A stretch of DNA of 42,769 bases, from assembly GCA_001779205.1 (NCBI GenBank), contig MFJM01000072.1, forward strand, positions 1-42,769, given 5' to 3'. This document shows, piece after piece, positions 14,552-21,697 of this stretch (positions are counted from its first letter, which is position 1; the number at the start of each line of letters is the position of its first letter). The DNA is from Candidatus Gottesmanbacteria bacterium RIFCSPHIGHO2_02_FULL_39_14. Lineage in GTDB: Bacteria > Patescibacteriota > Microgenomatia > 2-02-FULL-39-11. The notes beneath the pieces were generated by a model. The model was not told where the DNA came from. It made no database searches and saw nothing but the letters and a program-made list of their open reading frames with translations. The position numbers were made by a program, and so were the translations under genes.

Positions 14552-15877
14552 ATGCCAGAACCTCGCATTCCTCCTCATGATGAACAGGCGGAAGCTTCAG
14601 TCTTAGGAGCTATTTTAATCGATAAAGATGCCATAGCGGAAATTATCGATTTTTTGAAGCCCGAATTTTTTTACAAGGAGAGTCATGCTGATATATATGA
14701 GGCAATGATGGCTTTGTTTGAAAAGCATGAACCGGTAGATGTAGTCACAATGACGGCGCAGCTTAAGAAAATGGGTAAATATAAAGATGTCGGAGGAGGT
14801 ATTTATTTAACAGAATTAACCAATACCGTTCCGACCAGCGGTAATATTGAATTTTACGGGCAAATAGTGGCTGATCATTATGTCAAGAGAAAATTAATTG
14901 AATCAAGTGCCAAAATCACCAATTTGGCCTATGAAGGCAATCATGATACCAAAATTCTGCTGGACAAGGCTGAAGCGGAAATCATGTCTATTGCCCAAAA
15001 AAGATCCAGGCGGGATTTTATCAACATTAAAGATGCTTTAGCTGAGAGTTTTGACCGACTTGACGAACTTCACAAAAGAGGGACAAATTTGCGGGGCTTA
15101 CCGAGCGGATTTTATGATTTGGATAATAAATTAGCCGGAATGCAAAAGTCAAATCTTCTTATTCTGGCCGCCCGTCCCGGACAGGGAAAAACAGCCCTGG
15201 CTTTAAATATTGCCCAACATATTGCTGTCCACGAGAAATTAGCTGTAGGAATTTTTTCCCTGGAGATGAGTAAGGAAGAACTGGTGGACAGATTATTAGT
15301 TTCACAAGCCGATATTGATGCCTGGAGATTAAAGACAGGCAGACTGACGGATGAAGATTTTACCCGGTTGTCCGAGGCTATGGGTGAATTGGCTGAAGCC
15401 CCGTTATATATTGATGATACTCCGGGAATAAATATTTTCGAAATAAGGACCAAAGCCAGGCGGCTTCAGACAATGCACGATGCCAGATTTCTGATTGTTG
15501 ATTATTTACAATTGGTAGATCCCGGCAGGCGATTTGATAACAGAGTTCAGGAAGTATCCCTTATTTCCCAATCTTTGAAGAACCTGGCACGGGAACTGCA
15601 AATTCCGATATTAGCCGTTTCTCAGTTGTCCCGTGCCGTGGAACATCGGGGAGAAAAAAGGCCACAATTGGCTGATCTTAGGGAATCAGGAGCCATAGAG
15701 CAGGATTCTGATGTAGTAATGTTTATTTATAAAGAGGTTACAGAGGTTAAAAATTGGGAGCAGCAGATTATTAAACTGTTAATTGCCAAGCACCGCAACG
15801 GTCCCGGAGGGGAGATAGACCTTATTTTCAGAGGTGACCGGATCCGCTTCTATTCGGTGGAGAAACAAAAAGAATAG
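14552..15877 (+). CDS. dnaB: replicative DNA helicase
   Basis: PPHDEQAEASVLGAIL N-terminus, Walker A ARPGQGKTALALN, LIVDYLQL, and SQLSRAVEHRGEKRPQLADLRESGAIEQDSD. I chose the ATG at 14552; the track start at 14534 overlaps the upstream gene. Confidence 0.92.
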   Translation: MPEPRIPPHDEQAEASVLGAILIDKDAIAEIIDFLKPEFFYKESHADIYEAMMALFEKHEPVDVVTMTAQLKKMGKYKDVGGGIYLTELTNTVPTSGNIEFYGQIVADHYVKRKLIESSAKITNLAYEGNHDTKILLDKAEAEIMSIAQKRSRRDFINIKDALAESFDRLDELHKRGTNLRGLPSGFYDLDNKLAGMQKSNLLILAARPGQGKTALALNIAQHIAVHEKLAVGIFSLEMSKEELVDRLLVSQADIDAWRLKTGRLTDEDFTRLSEAMGELAEAPLYIDDTPGINIFEIRTKARRLQTMHDARFLIVDYLQLVDPGRRFDNRVQEVSLISQSLKNLARELQIPILAVSQLSRAVEHRGEKRPQLADLRESGAIEQDSDVVMFIYKEVTEVKNWEQQIIKLLIAKHRNGPGGEIDLIFRGDRIRFYSVEKQKE

Positions 15878-15888
15878 TATCAGATTAA

Positions 15889-16170
15889 TTACAATTTATT
15901 TGTTTCCTGTTTGATTTCCTCAATATCCTTTTCAAGTTCAAGCAGATCTAGGCTATTCAATTCCGTCTCCAATAGATCCATTTCACTGGCGTTTTCAAAG
16001 GTAGAAAAGGATATAGTCGAATCCTTATTATTGTTTGATGGAATTAATTCTTCTTTATTTTCCGGTTTATTATTTTTGTTGTAAATTGTTCCTGTTTGGA
16101 TTAGAACTGCGGCAGTAAAAATTGCCGCCAATAAAATTAATACTAAAATCGGAAATTTAATTTTTGCCAT
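15889..16170 (-). CDS. hypothetical small membrane-anchored acidic protein
   Basis: 93 aa with an N-terminal TM helix and an acidic Leu-rich C-terminus. Overlaps the upstream gene by 14 nt, which suggests co-translation. Confidence 0.4.
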   Translation of the reverse strand: MAKIKFPILVLILLAAIFTAAVLIQTGTIYNKNNKPENKEELIPSNNNKDSTISFSTFENASEMDLLETELNSLDLLELEKDIEEIKQETNKL

Positions 16171-17074
16171 AATTTTTTCTTAAGAGGCGGATAAGATCTC
16201 TGAGTAATTGTTGATACTCCTGAAGATCCGATTTAATGGAAATCAAATTTGTTATTTGCCGCCTGACTTCAGTTTTGAATATTAAAAAATCCCTTTCCTT
16301 ATTCAGGTCAGATATAATTATATTCAAATCAGATATTTTTTTATTAACAATTTTACTTTTCACTTCAGCCAGCGATATCTTTTTGACTGTCTCAGGGTCT
16401 TTATTTTTATTCTTATTGTATTTATCGCTTATGACTAAGATTTTAGATAAGATCCGATCGAAACGGTTAGTTGTATCCGAAATTTTATCAATAAATTTTC
16501 TTATTAATTCTAATATTTTGACAAGCAAATCATCGGTATTTGGCGGATTATTTTGGCCTTGGGAAGAAATTTCTATTGTTAAAGGGGTAAGTTTTTGACA
16601 ATCTAAAATATCATTGGAGTTACGAGCATCATTAATGTTGGAATCATTTTCCATGTTATTTTGGCAGATCAATACAAGTTCGGTGATACCGGATTTTAAG
16701 ATTTGAAAGCCAATTGTAGCCAGTGGAGTAGGACCACTTGATTTTTTAGGAGAAGCAATACTGGTTTGCCAACCGCTTAATAAATATTTATTTTGAGAAA
16801 GACCTACCAAAGTGCCAAAAAAATTGGAAAAGAAACCGTTATTGGTGGAAGAAAGTGGTTTTAAGTATTTAGGATCGAATTGTAGCAGTGCATCACCGGA
16901 TATTACAGGTTGGCCTGTTGTATCAATTAAAATTTGCAGCTTTAAAGTATCTCCCACGTTTATCAAACCCTTGTTTAAAATTTCCATTTTCAGGCTTTGG
17001 GCATAAGAAGTGGATGGAAAAGTCAATTTGAAGAAAAGAAAAAAAAATATAGTCAGGGCAGCTTTTTGTAGCAT
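16157..17074 (-). CDS. hypothetical secreted protein: cohesin-like beta domain plus coiled-coil C-terminal half
   Basis: Signal peptide ending TSYAQ. The block VGDTLKLQILIDTTGQPVISGDALLQFDPKYL...ATIGFQILKSGITELV resembles cohesin-type domains. The C-terminal half is heptad-like and Lys/Ile-rich. Confidence 0.45.
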   Translation of the reverse strand: MLQKAALTIFFFLFFKLTFPSTSYAQSLKMEILNKGLINVGDTLKLQILIDTTGQPVISGDALLQFDPKYLKPLSSTNNGFFSNFFGTLVGLSQNKYLLSGWQTSIASPKKSSGPTPLATIGFQILKSGITELVLICQNNMENDSNINDARNSNDILDCQKLTPLTIEISSQGQNNPPNTDDLLVKILELIRKFIDKISDTTNRFDRILSKILVISDKYNKNKNKDPETVKKISLAEVKSKIVNKKISDLNIIISDLNKERDFLIFKTEVRRQITNLISIKSDLQEYQQLLRDLIRLLRKNYGKN

Positions 17075-17185
17075 AGTAAATATTTGTTTATTTTGTTAAT
17101 ATAATTTTAACGATTTAATATTTAAAAATATAGAGGTATATTTGAAGTATAATAAATTTATTAATTAGATTTTATCTATTTTGTA

Positions 17186-17761
17186 ATGTCCGGAAGAATT
17201 CTAAAAACAATATTTGTAATCATTATATTTATAACATTAGGAGAGGTTGGATATTACGTTTACATTACTTTTAATTCAGCTCCTTCTAAATCATCAAAGA
17301 TCCCTTTTTTCAAAAGCAATAATATTAGTTCATCTCCCACAATAGAACCTATTTATAAAAAATCAATAAAATCAGGTCAGAACCTGAAGCCTTTGCTTTC
17401 CGATAAATCCAGTGAATTCTTAACAAACATTTACCCAAAATACCTAAAATCAAAGAAACAGAATAACAATCATTCCATTATCATTACAGAAAGAATAAAC
17501 GGGATCGTAGGGAAAATAGGTTTTGACAATCAGGAAAATGTTTATGAAATTTCAATCGTGGACGACAAGGGATTGATATTAACGGCCGATTTTTTTAATG
17601 AATCCAATTTGAGACAAGCAATTTATCTTAAGGAATCCGAACAGGGGAATACGGCAATAAAATTTGACCAGATAAAACAGGGCGATAAAATTGAAAAAAC
17701 CGTTAAATATGATCTAACGGATGATGCCAAAAGCGTTATTCAATATATAATAAAAACCTAA
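17186..17761 (+). CDS. hypothetical membrane-anchored protein
   Basis: 191 aa, a single N-terminal TM helix, no recognisable family. Confidence 0.45.
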   Translation: MSGRILKTIFVIIIFITLGEVGYYVYITFNSAPSKSSKIPFFKSNNISSSPTIEPIYKKSIKSGQNLKPLLSDKSSEFLTNIYPKYLKSKKQNNNHSIIITERINGIVGKIGFDNQENVYEISIVDDKGLILTADFFNESNLRQAIYLKESEQGNTAIKFDQIKQGDKIEKTVKYDLTDDAKSVIQYIIKT

Positions 17762-17782
17762 TTAGATGAAAAGCAGATTATA

Positions 17783-17977
17783 ATGGTAAAAAATTATTTA
17801 AAACCTGAAATCAAAATGAAGAAAATCACATTCTTGCTTTATTTTCCGTCCGACTTATATATTGATGATCTGTTAAGTCAGTGCGGTGCCTGTTGTGTTC
17901 CTAATAATTGTTGCGGAAGCGGTGGTCCCTCGTGTTTTTGCGAAAAAATCAGCGGTAATTATGAATGTTATTCTTGA
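17783..17977 (+). CDS. candidate cysteine-rich small peptide (8 Cys in the last 31 residues)
   Basis: ORF MVKNYLKPEIKMKKITFLLYFPSDLYIDDLLSQCGACCVPNNCCGSGGPSCFCEKISGNYECYS, with an alternative ATG at 17816. No strong SD. The 3' 105 nt overlap the convergent kinase-like gene, whose tail there is Thr/Ala low complexity, the antisense of Cys/Gly codons. Confidence 0.4.
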   Translation: MVKNYLKPEIKMKKITFLLYFPSDLYIDDLLSQCGACCVPNNCCGSGGPSCFCEKISGNYECYS

Positions 17978-18772
17978 TAATTGTTCTAGCAATTCCCTCC
18001 CGTTCTTTGTAAATCTAAGTAAATAAAATTCGTCAAATGAATTAATGAATCGGGTCAGACTTAATAATTGAGAAGACGAATGCTTCACATCAGACCATAA
18101 TTCATTCGATATTTTTACCAGTATATTAGTTTTACTGGTTATCTTCTCCAGCTTTGTTGAAGAATAAGATTTTTTTATTAAACAAATCGCTCTGATTTTA
18201 TACCTTCCCTTTTTCTTTTGAAACCAATTTATTTTTTCAACAAAAGGAGTCTGATAACAATAGAAATCTCTGCCGATTTGCCGTATAAATACGCTGTCAT
18301 CTGCTAAAGGAAGGGAAACGTTTTTTAAAAGAGTAATGATTGTTGATTTACCGGCATTCGGTCTGCCGATAAAAATAACAGATCCCCGGGGGAAGTAGGC
18401 TGCTGAGGCGTGGAGAATGAGTCCCTTATGTAAAGAAAGTAGTTTCTGTAAGACGTATTTGGATATTAAATTAAATTCGATAATACTCAAATGCTGGAAG
18501 GTTTGAATCAGGTTGCCCCGTTCCTGATAATAAAGTAAATATTTATTGTTTTTATCCTGAACCGATTTGAAAATTATTTGAAAGGGAGATTTATAAAGTT
18601 CAATAGTGAAATGTATAACTTTGGGTTTGCCTTTCAGAATAAATCCTTTGTAATATTTCAGGATTTCGGTCCTTAAACTATATGAAGAATAGTATCTTAA
18701 ATTGCGGGGTTTTTTATTTTTAAAACAAATTTTTAAATTAAATCCAGCAATATTCAGATAAATTATATTCAT
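17873..18772 (-). CDS. HPr-kinase-like P-loop protein (HprK C-terminal-domain superfamily, stand-alone)
   Basis: Motif GLILHASAAYFPRGSVIFIGRPNAGKSTIITLL (LHAS followed by GxxxxGKS). I chose the ATG at 18772 (MNIIYLNIAGF). The track ORF extends to 18976 only because it reads through the tRNA gene. Confidence 0.6.
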   Translation of the reverse strand: MNIIYLNIAGFNLKICFKNKKPRNLRYYSSYSLRTEILKYYKGFILKGKPKVIHFTIELYKSPFQIIFKSVQDKNNKYLLYYQERGNLIQTFQHLSIIEFNLISKYVLQKLLSLHKGLILHASAAYFPRGSVIFIGRPNAGKSTIITLLKNVSLPLADDSVFIRQIGRDFYCYQTPFVEKINWFQKKKGRYKIRAICLIKKSYSSTKLEKITSKTNILVKISNELWSDVKHSSSQLLSLTRFINSFDEFYLLRFTKNGRELLEQLSRITFIITADFFAKTRGTTASATIIRNTTGTALT

Positions 18773-18811
18773 TGAACCATCCGGCGGGAAGTCATGATAA
18801 TAAGATTCGGG

Positions 18812-18897
18812 TGGGCAAGGAGGGAGTCGAACCCTCACGGTATTTTCATACCACAAGTTTTTGAGACTTGCCTGTCTGCCGGTTCCAGCACTTGCCC
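18812..18897 (-). tRNA. tRNA-Leu, anticodon CAA, class II (long variable arm)
   Basis: Folded by hand on the minus strand. Acceptor GGGCAAG/CTTGCCC; 3-bp D stem CTG/CAG; anticodon stem CAAGT/ACTTG with loop CTCAAAA. The variable arm is GGTAT-GAAA-ATACC and the T arm is GAGGG-TTCGACT-CCCTC. The discriminator is A, and CCA is not encoded (followed by CCCG). Confidence 0.9.
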
Positions 18898-18959
18898 GAA
18901 AGAATGCGTTGACTACCAGAATTATATTTTGGTACACTTTGATAGTCAATCGGATCACT

Positions 18960-20459
18960 ATGAAATTTTCCCTCAAATCGAAGAAGATATCTCAGCTTGA
19001 AGTAGATACTTTAAATCTGTTTTTATGGGAAGATGAAGAAATTGAAAAATATAAAGAGTTTCCCGGCGAATTACTATTATACATTAAAGATGCCGTAAAA
19101 CGGGAAAATTTTAACCAGGATCGCGATGAAGTTTTATTATTATCTTCCAAGGGAATTATTTCTGCCTATAAATTAATTATCACCGGCCTTGGTAAAAAGA
19201 AGGATTTTGACCGGGGAATTTTAGCCGAACAAGTAGCTAAGTCAATCAGGAAATCGAAAGAAAATAAAGCGGTCAAAATCGGAATTGTTTTAGCTGATGA
19301 TTGGTGTGATCTATTTGGCATAAAAAACAGTGTTCAGACTATTGTTGAGGCAGTTAGTCTGGCCGATTACCGCTTCCTCAAATATAAAAGCGAAGAAGAA
19401 AAGAATAAAATCAGGATGTTGGAAGAGGTAATACTTTCCCTGCCTTTTGCCAGTCTATCCCAGGCAGAGGAGGGGATAAGGGAGGGTCAAATCATGAGCA
19501 AAGCTACTTTATTTGCCAGAGATCTGATAAATGAACCCCCTCAGGTGACCACTCCGACCTATTTAGCGCAAGAAGCCATGAAAATCGGAAAAAATTCTAA
19601 CGGATTAGTAAAAGTAACAATTTTAGAAAAAGAAGAAATAGAGAAACTGGGAATGAATTCATTTTTGGGAGTGGCCAGGGGAAGTGATGAACAACCGAAA
19701 TTTATCATCCTGAAATATAGGCCAGCCAGGCCGAGGAAAAAATTAGCGGTTATAGGCAAAGGGATAACTTTCGATACCGGAGGATTGTCCCTAAAAACTG
19801 CGGAATATATGGAAACCATGAAGTTGGATATGTCCGGAGCAGCTGCCATTTTAGGAATTTTTTCTGCCATATCTTCCTTTAAACCAAATGCTGAAGTCAC
19901 AGGACTGATTCCTGCCTGCGAGAATATGCCTTCCGGACGGGCTTTAAAACCAGGAGATATTTTACGAGCGATGAATGGAAAAACAATTGAAGTTATAAAT
20001 ACCGATGCTGAAGGCAGATTAACTCTGGCAGATGCTTTATCTTATGCGGTAAAGAAGGAAAAACCTGATGAAATTATTGATCTAGCGACGTTAACCGGTG
20101 CTTGTATGGTAGCTTTGGGTCAGGATATTGCCGGAATGTTCGGCAATGATGATAAATTACTAAAAACGTTTACGAAAATATCTTTAGAGACCGGGGATAA
20201 AGTTTGGCAGCTGCCGCTTGAAAAAGGGTATAAAGATTTAATAAAAAGCCATATAGCGGATGTAAGAAATATTGCCACAACAAAATACGGCGGGGCAATT
20301 ACAGCTTCACTATTTTTAGAGGAATTTGTCGATAATACATCATGGATACATCTCGATATAGCCGGCCCAGCCTATATGGAGAAAGATACGCCACTTATTC
20401 CTGCCGGCGGAGCAGGATTCGGGGTAAGGCTGATTCTTCACTATTTAAATTCTCTTTAA
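18960..20459 (+). CDS. pepA: M17 leucyl aminopeptidase
   Basis: VIGKGITFDTGGLSLK and the NTDAEGRLTLADAL signature. I chose the ATG at 18960 (MKFSLKSKK); the track start at 18861 lies inside the tRNA gene. Confidence 0.9.
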   Translation: MKFSLKSKKISQLEVDTLNLFLWEDEEIEKYKEFPGELLLYIKDAVKRENFNQDRDEVLLLSSKGIISAYKLIITGLGKKKDFDRGILAEQVAKSIRKSKENKAVKIGIVLADDWCDLFGIKNSVQTIVEAVSLADYRFLKYKSEEEKNKIRMLEEVILSLPFASLSQAEEGIREGQIMSKATLFARDLINEPPQVTTPTYLAQEAMKIGKNSNGLVKVTILEKEEIEKLGMNSFLGVARGSDEQPKFIILKYRPARPRKKLAVIGKGITFDTGGLSLKTAEYMETMKLDMSGAAAILGIFSAISSFKPNAEVTGLIPACENMPSGRALKPGDILRAMNGKTIEVINTDAEGRLTLADALSYAVKKEKPDEIIDLATLTGACMVALGQDIAGMFGNDDKLLKTFTKISLETGDKVWQLPLEKGYKDLIKSHIADVRNIATTKYGGAITASLFLEEFVDNTSWIHLDIAGPAYMEKDTPLIPAGGAGFGVRLILHYLNSL

Positions 20460-20470
20460 ACAATTCACCG

Positions 20471-21697
20471 ATGAATAGATCTATTGTACGGGTATTAACT
20501 AATTTCAATTTCCGAATGCTCTGGTTGGGTCAGATAATTTCCCAGATATCTTTAAATATACTTTCATTTGTTTTGGCGATTGAAGTTTATCAGTTGACCA
20601 TGTCCAATACTGCCGTATCCCTGATGCTGTTAACTTTTGGTTTGCCGGCAATTATTTTTGGAGTAATGTTTGGCGGAATAGTAGATCATTTCGATAAAAG
20701 ATCGGTGTTAATATTTTGTAATCTATCGCGGGCATTTATCCTGTTTTTTTATTTTTTATTTTCAGCCCACATATTTATGCTCTATTTACTATCAGTTCTC
20801 ATTTCCATTTTTACGCAATTATTCATCCCGGCTGAAGCACCCAGTATTCCGCAATTGGTCAAGAAGGATGATTTACTTTCAGCCAACTCGCTGTTTACCA
20901 TTACCTTTTATCTGTCGACGGTAATCGGTTCATTGACTGCCGGACCATTATTAAGAGTATTTGGCAGCCAGAACATTTTTATTATCATGACCATATTCAT
21001 GCTATTGGCATCTTTTTTTAACTATCGTTTACCAAGACTTTCTGCATCTAAAAAGGTAAAATTTGAATTCTATATAATTAATTTCGTCAAACCCGTTTAC
21101 GAGGGCTTTTTATTTATCCATCAGCATGAACGGATCAGACAAAGTCTCTACCTGCTGACTTTTTCCCAGGCGTTAATGGCTACCCTGGTAGTTTTGGCTC
21201 CCGGATTTGCCGATAAGATACTTCTAATTGATTTGAAGGATATATCATTAGTAGTGATGGGTCCGGCTGCTGTGGGACTAATACTGGGAGCTTTTCTGGT
21301 CGGAGTTAAGCCTAATAATATACTGCGGGGAACCATAATTCTTTCCGGAATTATAATTTCCGGAATTACTTTAATTATGTTAGCAGTAATCAGCTTTTTT
21401 AATCTTCATGGTATGATATACGCCATGATGTTTTTGCTTCTGGTTTTGGGGGTTGCGAATAGTTTTATAAATGTGCCTTCTTCGACAATACTCCAGGAAG
21501 AAACAGATGAGAACTTGCGCGGCCGGATTTACGGAGTACTTACATCATTGATAGGCGGTTTTTCACTTTTACCGGTACTTTTTTCCGGAATTTTAGCGGA
21601 TGTAGTTGGGGTTGGTAGAACACTTTTTATCATTGGTATAATGGTATTTTTAATCGGAAGTTATTTTGGGCAGAAGAGAATCAGGATAATTTATTAA
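20471..21697 (+). CDS. MFS transporter
   Basis: About 12 TM helices and an N-terminus NFNFRMLWLGQIISQIS, typical of MFS_3/EntS-like permeases. I chose the ATG at 20471; the track start at 20342 overlaps pepA. Confidence 0.75.
   Translation: MNRSIVRVLTNFNFRMLWLGQIISQISLNILSFVLAIEVYQLTMSNTAVSLMLLTFGLPAIIFGVMFGGIVDHFDKRSVLIFCNLSRAFILFFYFLFSAHIFMLYLLSVLISIFTQLFIPAEAPSIPQLVKKDDLLSANSLFTITFYLSTVIGSLTAGPLLRVFGSQNIFIIMTIFMLLASFFNYRLPRLSASKKVKFEFYIINFVKPVYEGFLFIHQHERIRQSLYLLTFSQALMATLVVLAPGFADKILLIDLKDISLVVMGPAAVGLILGAFLVGVKPNNILRGTIILSGIIISGITLIMLAVISFFNLHGMIYAMMFLLLVLGVANSFINVPSSTILQEETDENLRGRIYGVLTSLIGGFSLLPVLFSGILADVVGVGRTLFIIGIMVFLIGSYFGQKRIRIIY

Follow-up and report, generated by a model that had tools for sequence, protein, structure and literature searches.

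The linear polyphosphorylated peptides (LPPs) of Bacillota, described with their LppA/K/B/S/N/D proteins by Popov et al. (Nat Commun 2026; PMC13381572), are the nearest known counterpart of the three-gene locus that we describe here. This locus lies in a 42,769-nucleotide stretch of DNA (the window) from the Candidate Phyla Radiation (CPR) bacterium Candidatus Gottesmanbacteria bacterium RIFCSPHIGHO2_02_FULL_39_14 (contig MFJM01000072.1). It pairs a small Cys-rich peptide gene with a convergent gene for a predicted kinase of the ScmC family and with a gene for a membrane-anchored protein. We propose that the three genes probably form a reduced LPP-like module for a peptide that is ribosomally synthesized and then post-translationally modified (RiPP) in a Microgenomates-type CPR genome.

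The core LPP genes encode a SpI-like (signal peptidase I-like) archaeal-type signal peptidase, a RiPP recognition element (RRE), a kinase resembling HprK, an NTP_transf_5 protein and an MsbA-like pump (PMC13381572). LPP precursors have 35-200 residues, of which the N-terminal YxxPxV... is conserved and the C-terminal part varies; the full leader consensus is YxxPxVLxHQxIxFETxxS, and the acceptor is a Ser at core position 3. LppK polyphosphorylates this Ser3, does not accept Thr or Tyr, and acts directly on the precursor according to the genetics; the leader is removed by LppS together with the RRE. In the published neighbourhood table the kinase is recorded as TIGR04249 in 67 cases and as Hpr_kinase_C in 1 case, the clusters often lie in polysaccharide or glycosyltransferase loci, and LPPs are said to be restricted to Bacillota (PMC13381572). 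For lasso peptides, Y-x-x-P-x-L is the leader motif bound by the RREs; lasso kinases still phosphorylate precursors in which this motif is mutated, and BsfK acts on core Ser3 (PMC10368454).

The precursor-peptide gene of the window runs from 17783 to 17977 on the plus strand and comprises 64 codons and a stop. Its product would consist of a conserved leader followed by a hypervariable core. The leader carries the motif Y5-L-K-P-E-I10 (17795-17812, +), of the [Y/W]xxPx[L/V/I] type. The predicted leader/core junction, L29-L-S-Q-C33 (17867-17881, +), fits the pattern [LFY][LF][AS]-x-x; it was placed by alignment and by analogy to F(-3)/T(-1) of LppA, with the putative cleavage site located to within ±2 residues. 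The core (17882-17974, +), of about 31 residues with eight Cys and a C-terminal Tyr-Ser, corresponds to the last 31 residues, CGACCVPNNCCGSGGPSCFCEKISGNYECYS, which follow the pattern C-x2-CC-x4-CC-x6-C-x-C-x8-C-Y-S. An earlier account of this DNA, made from its letters alone (the sequence-only reading), had reported the 64-codon ORF (open reading frame), the Cys pattern and a 105-nucleotide (nt) overlap with the convergent gene (17873-17977), and all three stand. It had also taken the N-terminal half for a leader and not a Sec signal, which agrees with the RRE-binding type of leader found. Its alternative start at ATG 17816 does not hold: the conserved Y-x-K-P motif lies upstream of that codon, and 17783 is therefore the translation start.

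Related loci were gathered by searching with an 11-sequence alignment of kinase-like homologues. Small ORFs beside the homologous kinase-like genes share an N-terminal region, Y-x-K-P-x-[IVL]-x-x-K-K-[IL], and a [LFY][LF][AS]-x junction, after which come unrelated, mostly Cys-rich tails; Y, K and P never change across the 19 leaders that were aligned, and from locus to locus the cores are hypervariable. A hidden Markov model (HMM) trained on 13 peptides of other loci, but not on the window peptide, was run on 852 six-frame ORFs of the window. The peptide scored E=3.3e-10 and was the sole significant match (runner-up, 0.25). A leader-bearing ORF is present in 18 of the 21 distinct CPR-type loci (23 kinase genes in all), so that the synteny search proposed in the sequence-only reading did find such ORFs beside kinase-like genes elsewhere. 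Eighteen of these ORFs, the window's among them, converge on the kinase gene; besides the window there are 17 cases, at 13 other distinct loci, in which a same-leader ORF and a ScmC-like gene converge, the ORF facing the gene's 3' end. The pairing of peptide and kinase that the earlier account suspected thus recurs, and an LppK-type kinase does phosphorylate its own precursor (PMC13381572). Stop-to-stop distances between the two genes range from -31 to +30 nt in 16 modules outside the window (12 of these distances measured directly; those of L073, L081, L084 and L085, in our numbering of related loci, derived from gene tables). In the seventeenth case, L036, a PqqD gene stands between the peptide ORF and the kinase gene on which it converges. 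Loci L007 and L010 each have two tandem units of the order kinase -> <- peptide <- membrane protein.

Precursor genes of this family have 42-74 codons, and a word-index search of a protein database with the window peptide found no match, the peptide itself included, since gene calling had passed it over; the L081 homologue was called. The peptide is identical in 6 other assemblies. The HMM match and the homologous ORFs beside kinase-like genes elsewhere argue that the ORF is a real, conserved precursor-peptide gene and not a chance ORF. Two leader-bearing ORFs, L032 6263-6403 (-) and L083 8262-8390 (-), have very short Cys-free cores (...LAVETTPL and ...LLSMLIS), and Cys-richness is therefore not a defining trait of the precursor family.

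Two further variants carry the same leader on a larger protein. A 191-residue ORF in L073 (6817-7392, -) converges on the ScmC-like gene and opens with the leader (KKYSKPIIKKEKVHINFF...GDLLAA); its core, CPPSCG, is short and is fused directly to a Hint/intein-like domain starting CFLPGTKITL. The fusion suggests thioester activation of the core C-terminus; the same cluster has YcaO, PqqD and NTP_transf_5 genes. In L085 (6423-6902, -) a 159-residue variant joins the leader to a Peptidase_S74 domain, a self-cleaving intramolecular chaperone, and adjoins YcaO, nitroreductase, S24/NTP_transf_5 and PqqD genes.

The convergent gene (17873-18772, -) starts at ATG 18772, a start backed by alignment of its N-terminal MNIIYLNIAGF with those of homologues, and encodes a 299-residue ScmC-family (LppK-like) protein with a predicted P-loop kinase fold. 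It contains GLILHASAAYFPRGSVIFIGRPNAGKSTIITLL and has three motifs in order: L-H121-A-S123-A (18401-18415, -), the P-loop G136-R-P-N-A-G-K142-S-T144 (18341-18367, -) and L-A-D158-D159-S (18293-18307, -), the last being the counterpart of the 'ADD' catalytic aspartates of HprK/P. We take the LHASA His to match in position the catalytic-site His of HprK/P, from the HprK/P sequence and from the profile match to 1ko7 residues 108-184. Searches returned 33 homologues (26-42% identity, E down to 5e-46). In an alignment of the window protein and 32 homologues H121, S123, G141, K142, T144, D158, D159 and P176 are invariant.

Family assignment comes through these relatives. PF27840, named ScmC, is precomputed on 31 of the 33 homologues. 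When all 33 aligned sequences were scanned one by one, TIGR04249 (SynChlorMet cassette protein ScmC) matched 30, HprK-related kinase A 18, HprK-related kinase B 11 and, weakly, the HPr(Ser) kinase/phosphatase model TIGR00679 18. The best TIGR04249 E among family members was 1.6e-9, and three scored singly reached 24-39 bits against a 125-bit cut-off. Single-sequence Pfam and NCBIfam scans of the window protein gave P-loop-level matches alone. The profile searches suggested by the sequence-only reading therefore succeeded for the homologues but not for the window protein, and ScmC, one of the stand-alone HprK-like families that it named as recurring next to peptides, proves to be the family concerned. 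The family is large: with clustering at 50% identity it comprises 675 clusters at E<=1e-30, a number that rises to 4792 at E<=1e-10.

The predicted structure points the same way. An AlphaFold2 model built from the alignment has a mean predicted local distance difference test score (pLDDT) of 87 and a predicted template modelling score of 0.83. The best 50 Foldseek matches in the PDB, all at E<=1e-4, are ATP-dependent phosphoenolpyruvate carboxykinases (PEPCKs) and HprK/P alone (PEPCK, 2e-7; HprK/P 1knx, 4e-6; 1jb1 and 1kkl, about 3e-5). A sequence profile searched against the PDB gave mostly generic P-loop/ABC matches; PEPCK and 1ko7 (residues 108-184, E=0.004) alone extend past the P-loop. 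From model and alignment we conclude that the protein is predicted to have the PEPCK/HprK fold with His, P-loop and Asp-Asp kept, and to belong to the ScmC family (PF27840/TIGR04249-like). Given this fold and active site, the earlier call of an HPr-kinase-like protein was correct at that level, though its length is 299 and not 300 residues.

What, then, of the long overlap between the two genes? Homologues of the kinase-like protein end near window residue 268-272, the profile matches the window protein no further than residue 269, and the best 150 relatives have 257-291 residues. Residues ~270-299, with the stop codon (17873-17965, -), are antisense to the peptide core, are not conserved and are unique to the window protein; residues 270-299 have a pLDDT of 40-59 and are predicted to be disordered. 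The 105-nt overlap thus arises because the kinase gene does not end where its family usually does but reads on through the antisense of Cys/Gly codons, which has no stops. At other loci the stops of the two genes are -31 to +30 nt apart, and the long overlap here is therefore a local read-through. The peptide frame would therefore be the conserved one in the overlap, as the sequence-only reading had supposed, with a kinase tail that appears to have no conserved role.

The arrangement is not one of two genes, as had been thought. A third gene (17186-17761, +), which ends 21 nt ahead of the peptide ATG, encodes a 191-residue protein with an N-terminal membrane anchor. By synteny it is the third conserved member of the module: a same-strand protein of 166-213 residues precedes the peptide gene in 14 modules, the window counted (the others being L007 and L010, two each, L034-L037, L075, L081, L083, L085 and a divergent 166-residue form in L073). 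Members of the family have a membrane helix, LKxIFVxLLxxTxxExxYY, at the N-terminus; their C-terminal domain is small and ends in an L-K-x-G-D motif. The window protein has no Pfam match, a word search with it returned just itself, and its single-sequence AlphaFold2 model has a pLDDT of 33. The anchor motif LKxIFVxxxxxTxxExGYY (window 17195-17260) also opens an unrelated 381-residue FGE-sulfatase-like protein in L077 (3434-3502), and perhaps serves both for anchoring or recognition.

Most related loci encode more than these three proteins. Loci L007-L010, L032, L036, L038, L073, L077, L083 and L085 encode a PqqD protein of ~85 residues (Pfam E 1e-8 to 1e-10), and PDB matches of the CPR PqqD proteins are lasso-peptide B1 RREs alone. 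Relatives also encode a signal peptidase I fused to NTP_transf_5 (TIGR02228, 63.7 bits, above the 51.85 cut-off). The sequence-only reading had found no class to match its gene pair; the PqqD RRE, archaeal-type signal peptidase I and NTP_transf_5 of the relatives make up the LPP gene set. YcaO, with or without a nitroreductase-type gene, occurs in L073, L079, L084 and L085, and L077 has three radical-SAM (S-adenosylmethionine) genes, of which the one scored best matches the PapB family. The two modules of L007 share one PqqD/peptidase set. Several CPR loci lie amid glycosyltransferase, Wzy or Bac_transf genes. Five loci (the window, L037, L072, L075 and L081) have peptide and kinase genes with no PqqD or NTP_transf_5 gene within 6-43 kb, and L072 has no membrane-protein gene either. 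Near modules at three unrelated loci we also saw a DUF4330-type protein of ~270 residues (L077 10847-11662, L007 574-1371, L081 3866-4630); the L081 module sits amid AbiEii, HEPN/MNT and HicA genes.

How closely does the window resemble an LPP cluster? Its precursor has an N-terminal RRE-binding YxxPx[V/I/L] motif (Y5-L-K-P-E-I10) and a variable C-terminus, and its kinase is of the TIGR04249/ScmC HprK-like type by fold, residues and relatives, although the window protein itself gives no TIGR04249 match at E<=1. The differences lie in gene content, leader and host. The window has a precursor, a kinase and a membrane protein foreign to LPP, and no discrete PqqD-type RRE, peptidase, NTP_transf_5 or MsbA-type exporter was found in it (tblastn; Pfam families listed). 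Past YxxPxI its leader reads KMKKITFLLYFPSDLYIDDLLSQC; it is longer than the LPP leader and VLxHQxIxFETxxS is absent. CPR relatives have peptidase and transferase fused into a single protein, and the clusters have Cys-rich cores, optional YcaO or radical-SAM enzymes and no ABC (ATP-binding cassette) pump. Finally, the hosts are CPR bacteria and not Bacillota.

Lasso clusters with a kinase (paeninodin PadeK, ThcoK, BsfK, pseudomycoidin PsmK/PsmN) have in common with the window an HprK-like kinase and a ribosomal YxxPxL precursor. They also have a PqqD/B1 RRE and a nucleotidyltransferase partner, with a fusion of transferase and leader peptidase in some (PMC8498205, PMC10368454). In contrast, neither an Asn-synthetase-like cyclase nor a transglutaminase-type B2 protease was found in the window (among the Pfam families listed) or in the related loci examined, and the core is unlike a lasso core, with a C-terminal Ser that is not conserved. 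The sequence-only reading had raised that Ser as a possible kinase target. The idea of a conserved C-terminal Ser target is weak: about half of the CPR peptides end in C, and the others in S, S, T, Q, N, L or G; moreover, the LPP acceptor is core Ser3 (PMC13381572). Distant, radical-SAM-type relatives of the peptide do mostly end in Ser.

SynChlorMet (ScmC TIGR04249, ScmD PqqD, ScmE/ScmF radical SAM/SPASM) supplies the best-matching curated family for the kinase-like protein; yet all scores fall far under the 125-bit TIGR04249 cut-off, and ScmD and the radical SAM/SPASM proteins ScmE and ScmF are not in the window (tblastn; Pfam families listed). Distant clusters of Acidobacteria, Thiolapillus and others combine an HprK-like protein (best match ScmC), PqqD (best match ScmD), radical SAM/SPASM, an S24/S26 peptidase and a YxKPx[IVL] precursor. 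SynChlorMet-like clusters outside CPR have HprK-like and radical SAM/SPASM genes, and most also have PqqD and an S24/S26 peptidase. Small YxKPx[IVL] ORFs in them (L024 7083-7244, L012 6823-7014, L023 4413-4571, L050 575-802, L062 3222-3407, L063 1279-1425) have an ALAC-type junction, about two Cys and usually a C-terminal Ser, and are candidate precursors for the cassette. With HprK/P and ATP-dependent PEPCK the window protein shares the fold (Foldseek E 2e-7 to 1e-4) and the order and spacing of His, P-loop and Asp-Asp. It differs in having no Hpr_kinase_C or TIGR00679 match at E<=1, an identity of about 13-16%, another N-terminal domain and a presumed substrate that is a peptide and not HPr. 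A likeness to ranthipeptides in a YxKPxL leader was considered and dropped, the PapA leader being LKQINVIAGVKEPIRA. The leader profile had no match in the PDB; literature searches on ScmC/SynChlorMet and on NTP_transf_5 with HprK-related kinase gave nothing useful, and the RRE-Finder papers are silent on such kinases.

Around the module, tRNA-Leu(CAA) (18810-18897, -; ARAGORN) shares the strand of the kinase-like gene and lies upstream of it, as the sequence-only reading had it, at a distance of 37 nt and not 39. Just past the tRNA are genes for an M17 leucyl aminopeptidase (18960-20459) and an MFS_1/MFS_3 transporter (20342-21697), with no link to the module. The earlier statement that no cyclase, radical-SAM enzyme, protease or exporter is nearby was right for the first two; this aminopeptidase and this transporter qualify the rest. 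Searches of the 42.7-kb window by tblastn with PqqD (four queries, E<=1e-2), NTP_transf_5/SpI, YcaO and radical-SAM queries returned nothing. A Pfam inventory covered window ORFs of at least 100 residues (25 of its 31 families are listed in one part). The families listed include no MsbA-like ABC transporter, an MFS transporter being there instead. They are otherwise those of housekeeping genes (tRNA synthetases, release factor, ribosomal proteins, SSB, DnaB, gyrase, H+-pyrophosphatase, type IV pilus ATPases, Lgt and the M17 peptidase).

The locus is at least 99.9% identical in 7 assemblies, and six other contigs are 99.9-100% identical over the module, which borders a strain-variable insertion point beside the tRNA. 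Four assemblies (L001, L002, L005 and L006) cease to match the window at 18909, 12 nt past tRNA-Leu. In L001 (1-1452) a helix-turn-helix transposase-like gene lies at this break, and a deletion of ~125 nt (window 17582-17705) disrupts the 191-residue gene. The GC content of the module region, 16000-19000, is 0.30-0.34, compared with about 0.38 elsewhere; together with the tRNA beside it, the low value suggests an islet that was acquired or evolves fast. A promoter-like site at 17724-17751 (+) stands 32 nt ahead of the peptide ATG, another, which is strong, precedes the tRNA at 18949-18921 (-), and a terminator-like hairpin lies at 17720-17700 (-), downstream of the kinase gene; counts of such sites were not above those in shuffled controls. 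With a hairpin in that position the kinase transcript would cross the whole peptide gene in antisense. Rfam at the gathering threshold found no family in 15000-21000, not even the tRNA that ARAGORN detects.

We favour a reduced LPP-like RiPP module over a new class, since the relatives carry the LPP gene set and the window has no RRE, peptidase or transferase of its own. By this account the 64-residue precursor would have a leader of ~31-33 residues with the RRE-binding Y-x-K-P-x-I motif, an LL[A/S]-x junction and a hypervariable core with eight Cys. If it behaves like LppK and the lasso kinases, the ScmC/LppK-type kinase would use ATP to place at least one phosphate on a hydroxyl residue of the precursor, with Ser31, Ser43, Ser47, Ser54 and the C-terminal Ser64 as candidate acceptors. 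The 191-residue membrane-anchored protein would be the third partner, for which export, anchoring or immunity are guesses. In most relatives the PqqD RRE and the signal-peptidase-I/NTP_transf_5 fusion would remove the leader and presumably extend the phosphate, and YcaO or radical-SAM enzymes may modify the core in some. As the RRE-binding motif is intact, RRE and peptidase are probably supplied from elsewhere in the genome, and as the catalytic residues are intact too, the module is probably functional.

Several results weigh against the reduced LPP-like module. Even at E<=1 the window protein matches none of TIGR04249, HprK_rel_A/B, TIGR00679 and Hpr_kinase_C. No Ser is fixed in the CPR cores: the residue two past the conserved A/S is C, S, T, V or others in the alignment. 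Copies of the overlap are either at least 99.9% identical (six other contigs) or at most 42% identical as protein, so that a codon-level comparison has no usable divergence. Lastly, no RRE, SpI peptidase, NTP_transf_5, radical SAM or YcaO was found in the window (tblastn; Pfam families listed), and full LPP-type maturation thus cannot be encoded locally. Could the three genes be self-sufficient instead? The kinase might read the leader through its ~95-residue N-terminal domain, without RRE or peptidase, and the membrane protein might handle the phosphorylated or disulfide-rich peptide. Five loci pair peptide and kinase with no PqqD or NTP_transf_5 gene within 6-43 kb, all but L072 with the membrane protein, and lasso kinases act without an RRE-binding motif (PMC10368454). 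However, the orphan modules keep the invariant Y-x-K-P motif, which argues for an RRE in trans, and the shared PqqD/peptidase set of L007 is also at odds with self-sufficiency. Moreover, the modelled N-terminal domain consists largely of beta strands, has just one helix and does not suggest the winged-helix RRE fold. We think this explanation unlikely. A joint reading is conceivable but doubtful: that the triad is such a self-sufficient, RRE-independent minimal CPR RiPP system and that the CPR clade is a distinct, large phosphorylated-peptide branch (at least 675 clusters at 50% identity) extending LPP-type chemistry beyond Bacillota. Equally doubtful is its other part, that hypervariable Cys-rich cores are combined modularly with YcaO, radical-SAM, or self-cleaving Hint/S74 C-terminal domains.

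It is decidedly unlikely that the locus is the decaying remnant of a once-complete cluster, with the kinase stop lost, accessory genes gone and no product made. The read-through tail unique to the window protein, the low-GC stretch beside the tRNA, and the sibling assembly with its transposase-like insertion and ~125-nt deletion in the membrane-protein gene would fit such decay. Yet nothing is missing from the invariant catalytic residues or from the leader motif, none of the three ORFs is interrupted, 7 assemblies carry the locus with at least 99.9% identity, and the unrelated contigs L037 and L081 have the same three-gene layout. Very unlikely, in our estimate, is an unmodified, disulfide-rich secreted or bacteriocin-like peptide with the membrane protein as its immunity or export partner, the ScmC-like protein then being an ATP-dependent chaperone, a regulator or an enzyme for another substrate. 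The eight-Cys core and a membrane-protein gene that is always co-directional with the peptide gene would suit this idea, and to our knowledge ScmC function has been shown for LppK alone. LppN-type chemistry is also still unsettled (PMC13381572). However, the leader is of RRE-binding type, unlike a Sec or double-glycine signal, no other neighbour is as constant as the kinase gene, whether the core is Cys-rich, Cys-free or Hint/S74-fused, and LppK genetics show direct phosphorylation (PMC13381572). A chance ORF antisense to the 3' end of the kinase gene deserves next to no credence: gene callers missed the ORF and the protein database does not contain it, but conservation refutes the idea (HMM E=3.3e-10, homologous ORFs in the same position elsewhere, and a called gene in L081).

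CPR bacteria (Patescibacteria) have tiny genomes and are thought to be poor in natural-product capacity. What is new here is a CPR-hosted, reduced, Cys-rich version of the recently described LPP system. A large family of ScmC/LppK-type kinases in CPR would be paired with precursor-peptide genes that had not been called before; at 42-74 codons, convergent on the kinase gene and often overlapping it, such genes are missed in annotation. The family includes unusual variants: Cys-rich cores, peptidase/transferase fusions, Hint- and S74-fused precursors and three-gene orphan modules. These peptides supply candidate substrates for the uncharacterised ScmC family, and the LPP class, reported in 2026 as restricted to Bacillota, would be extended to another part of the bacterial tree.

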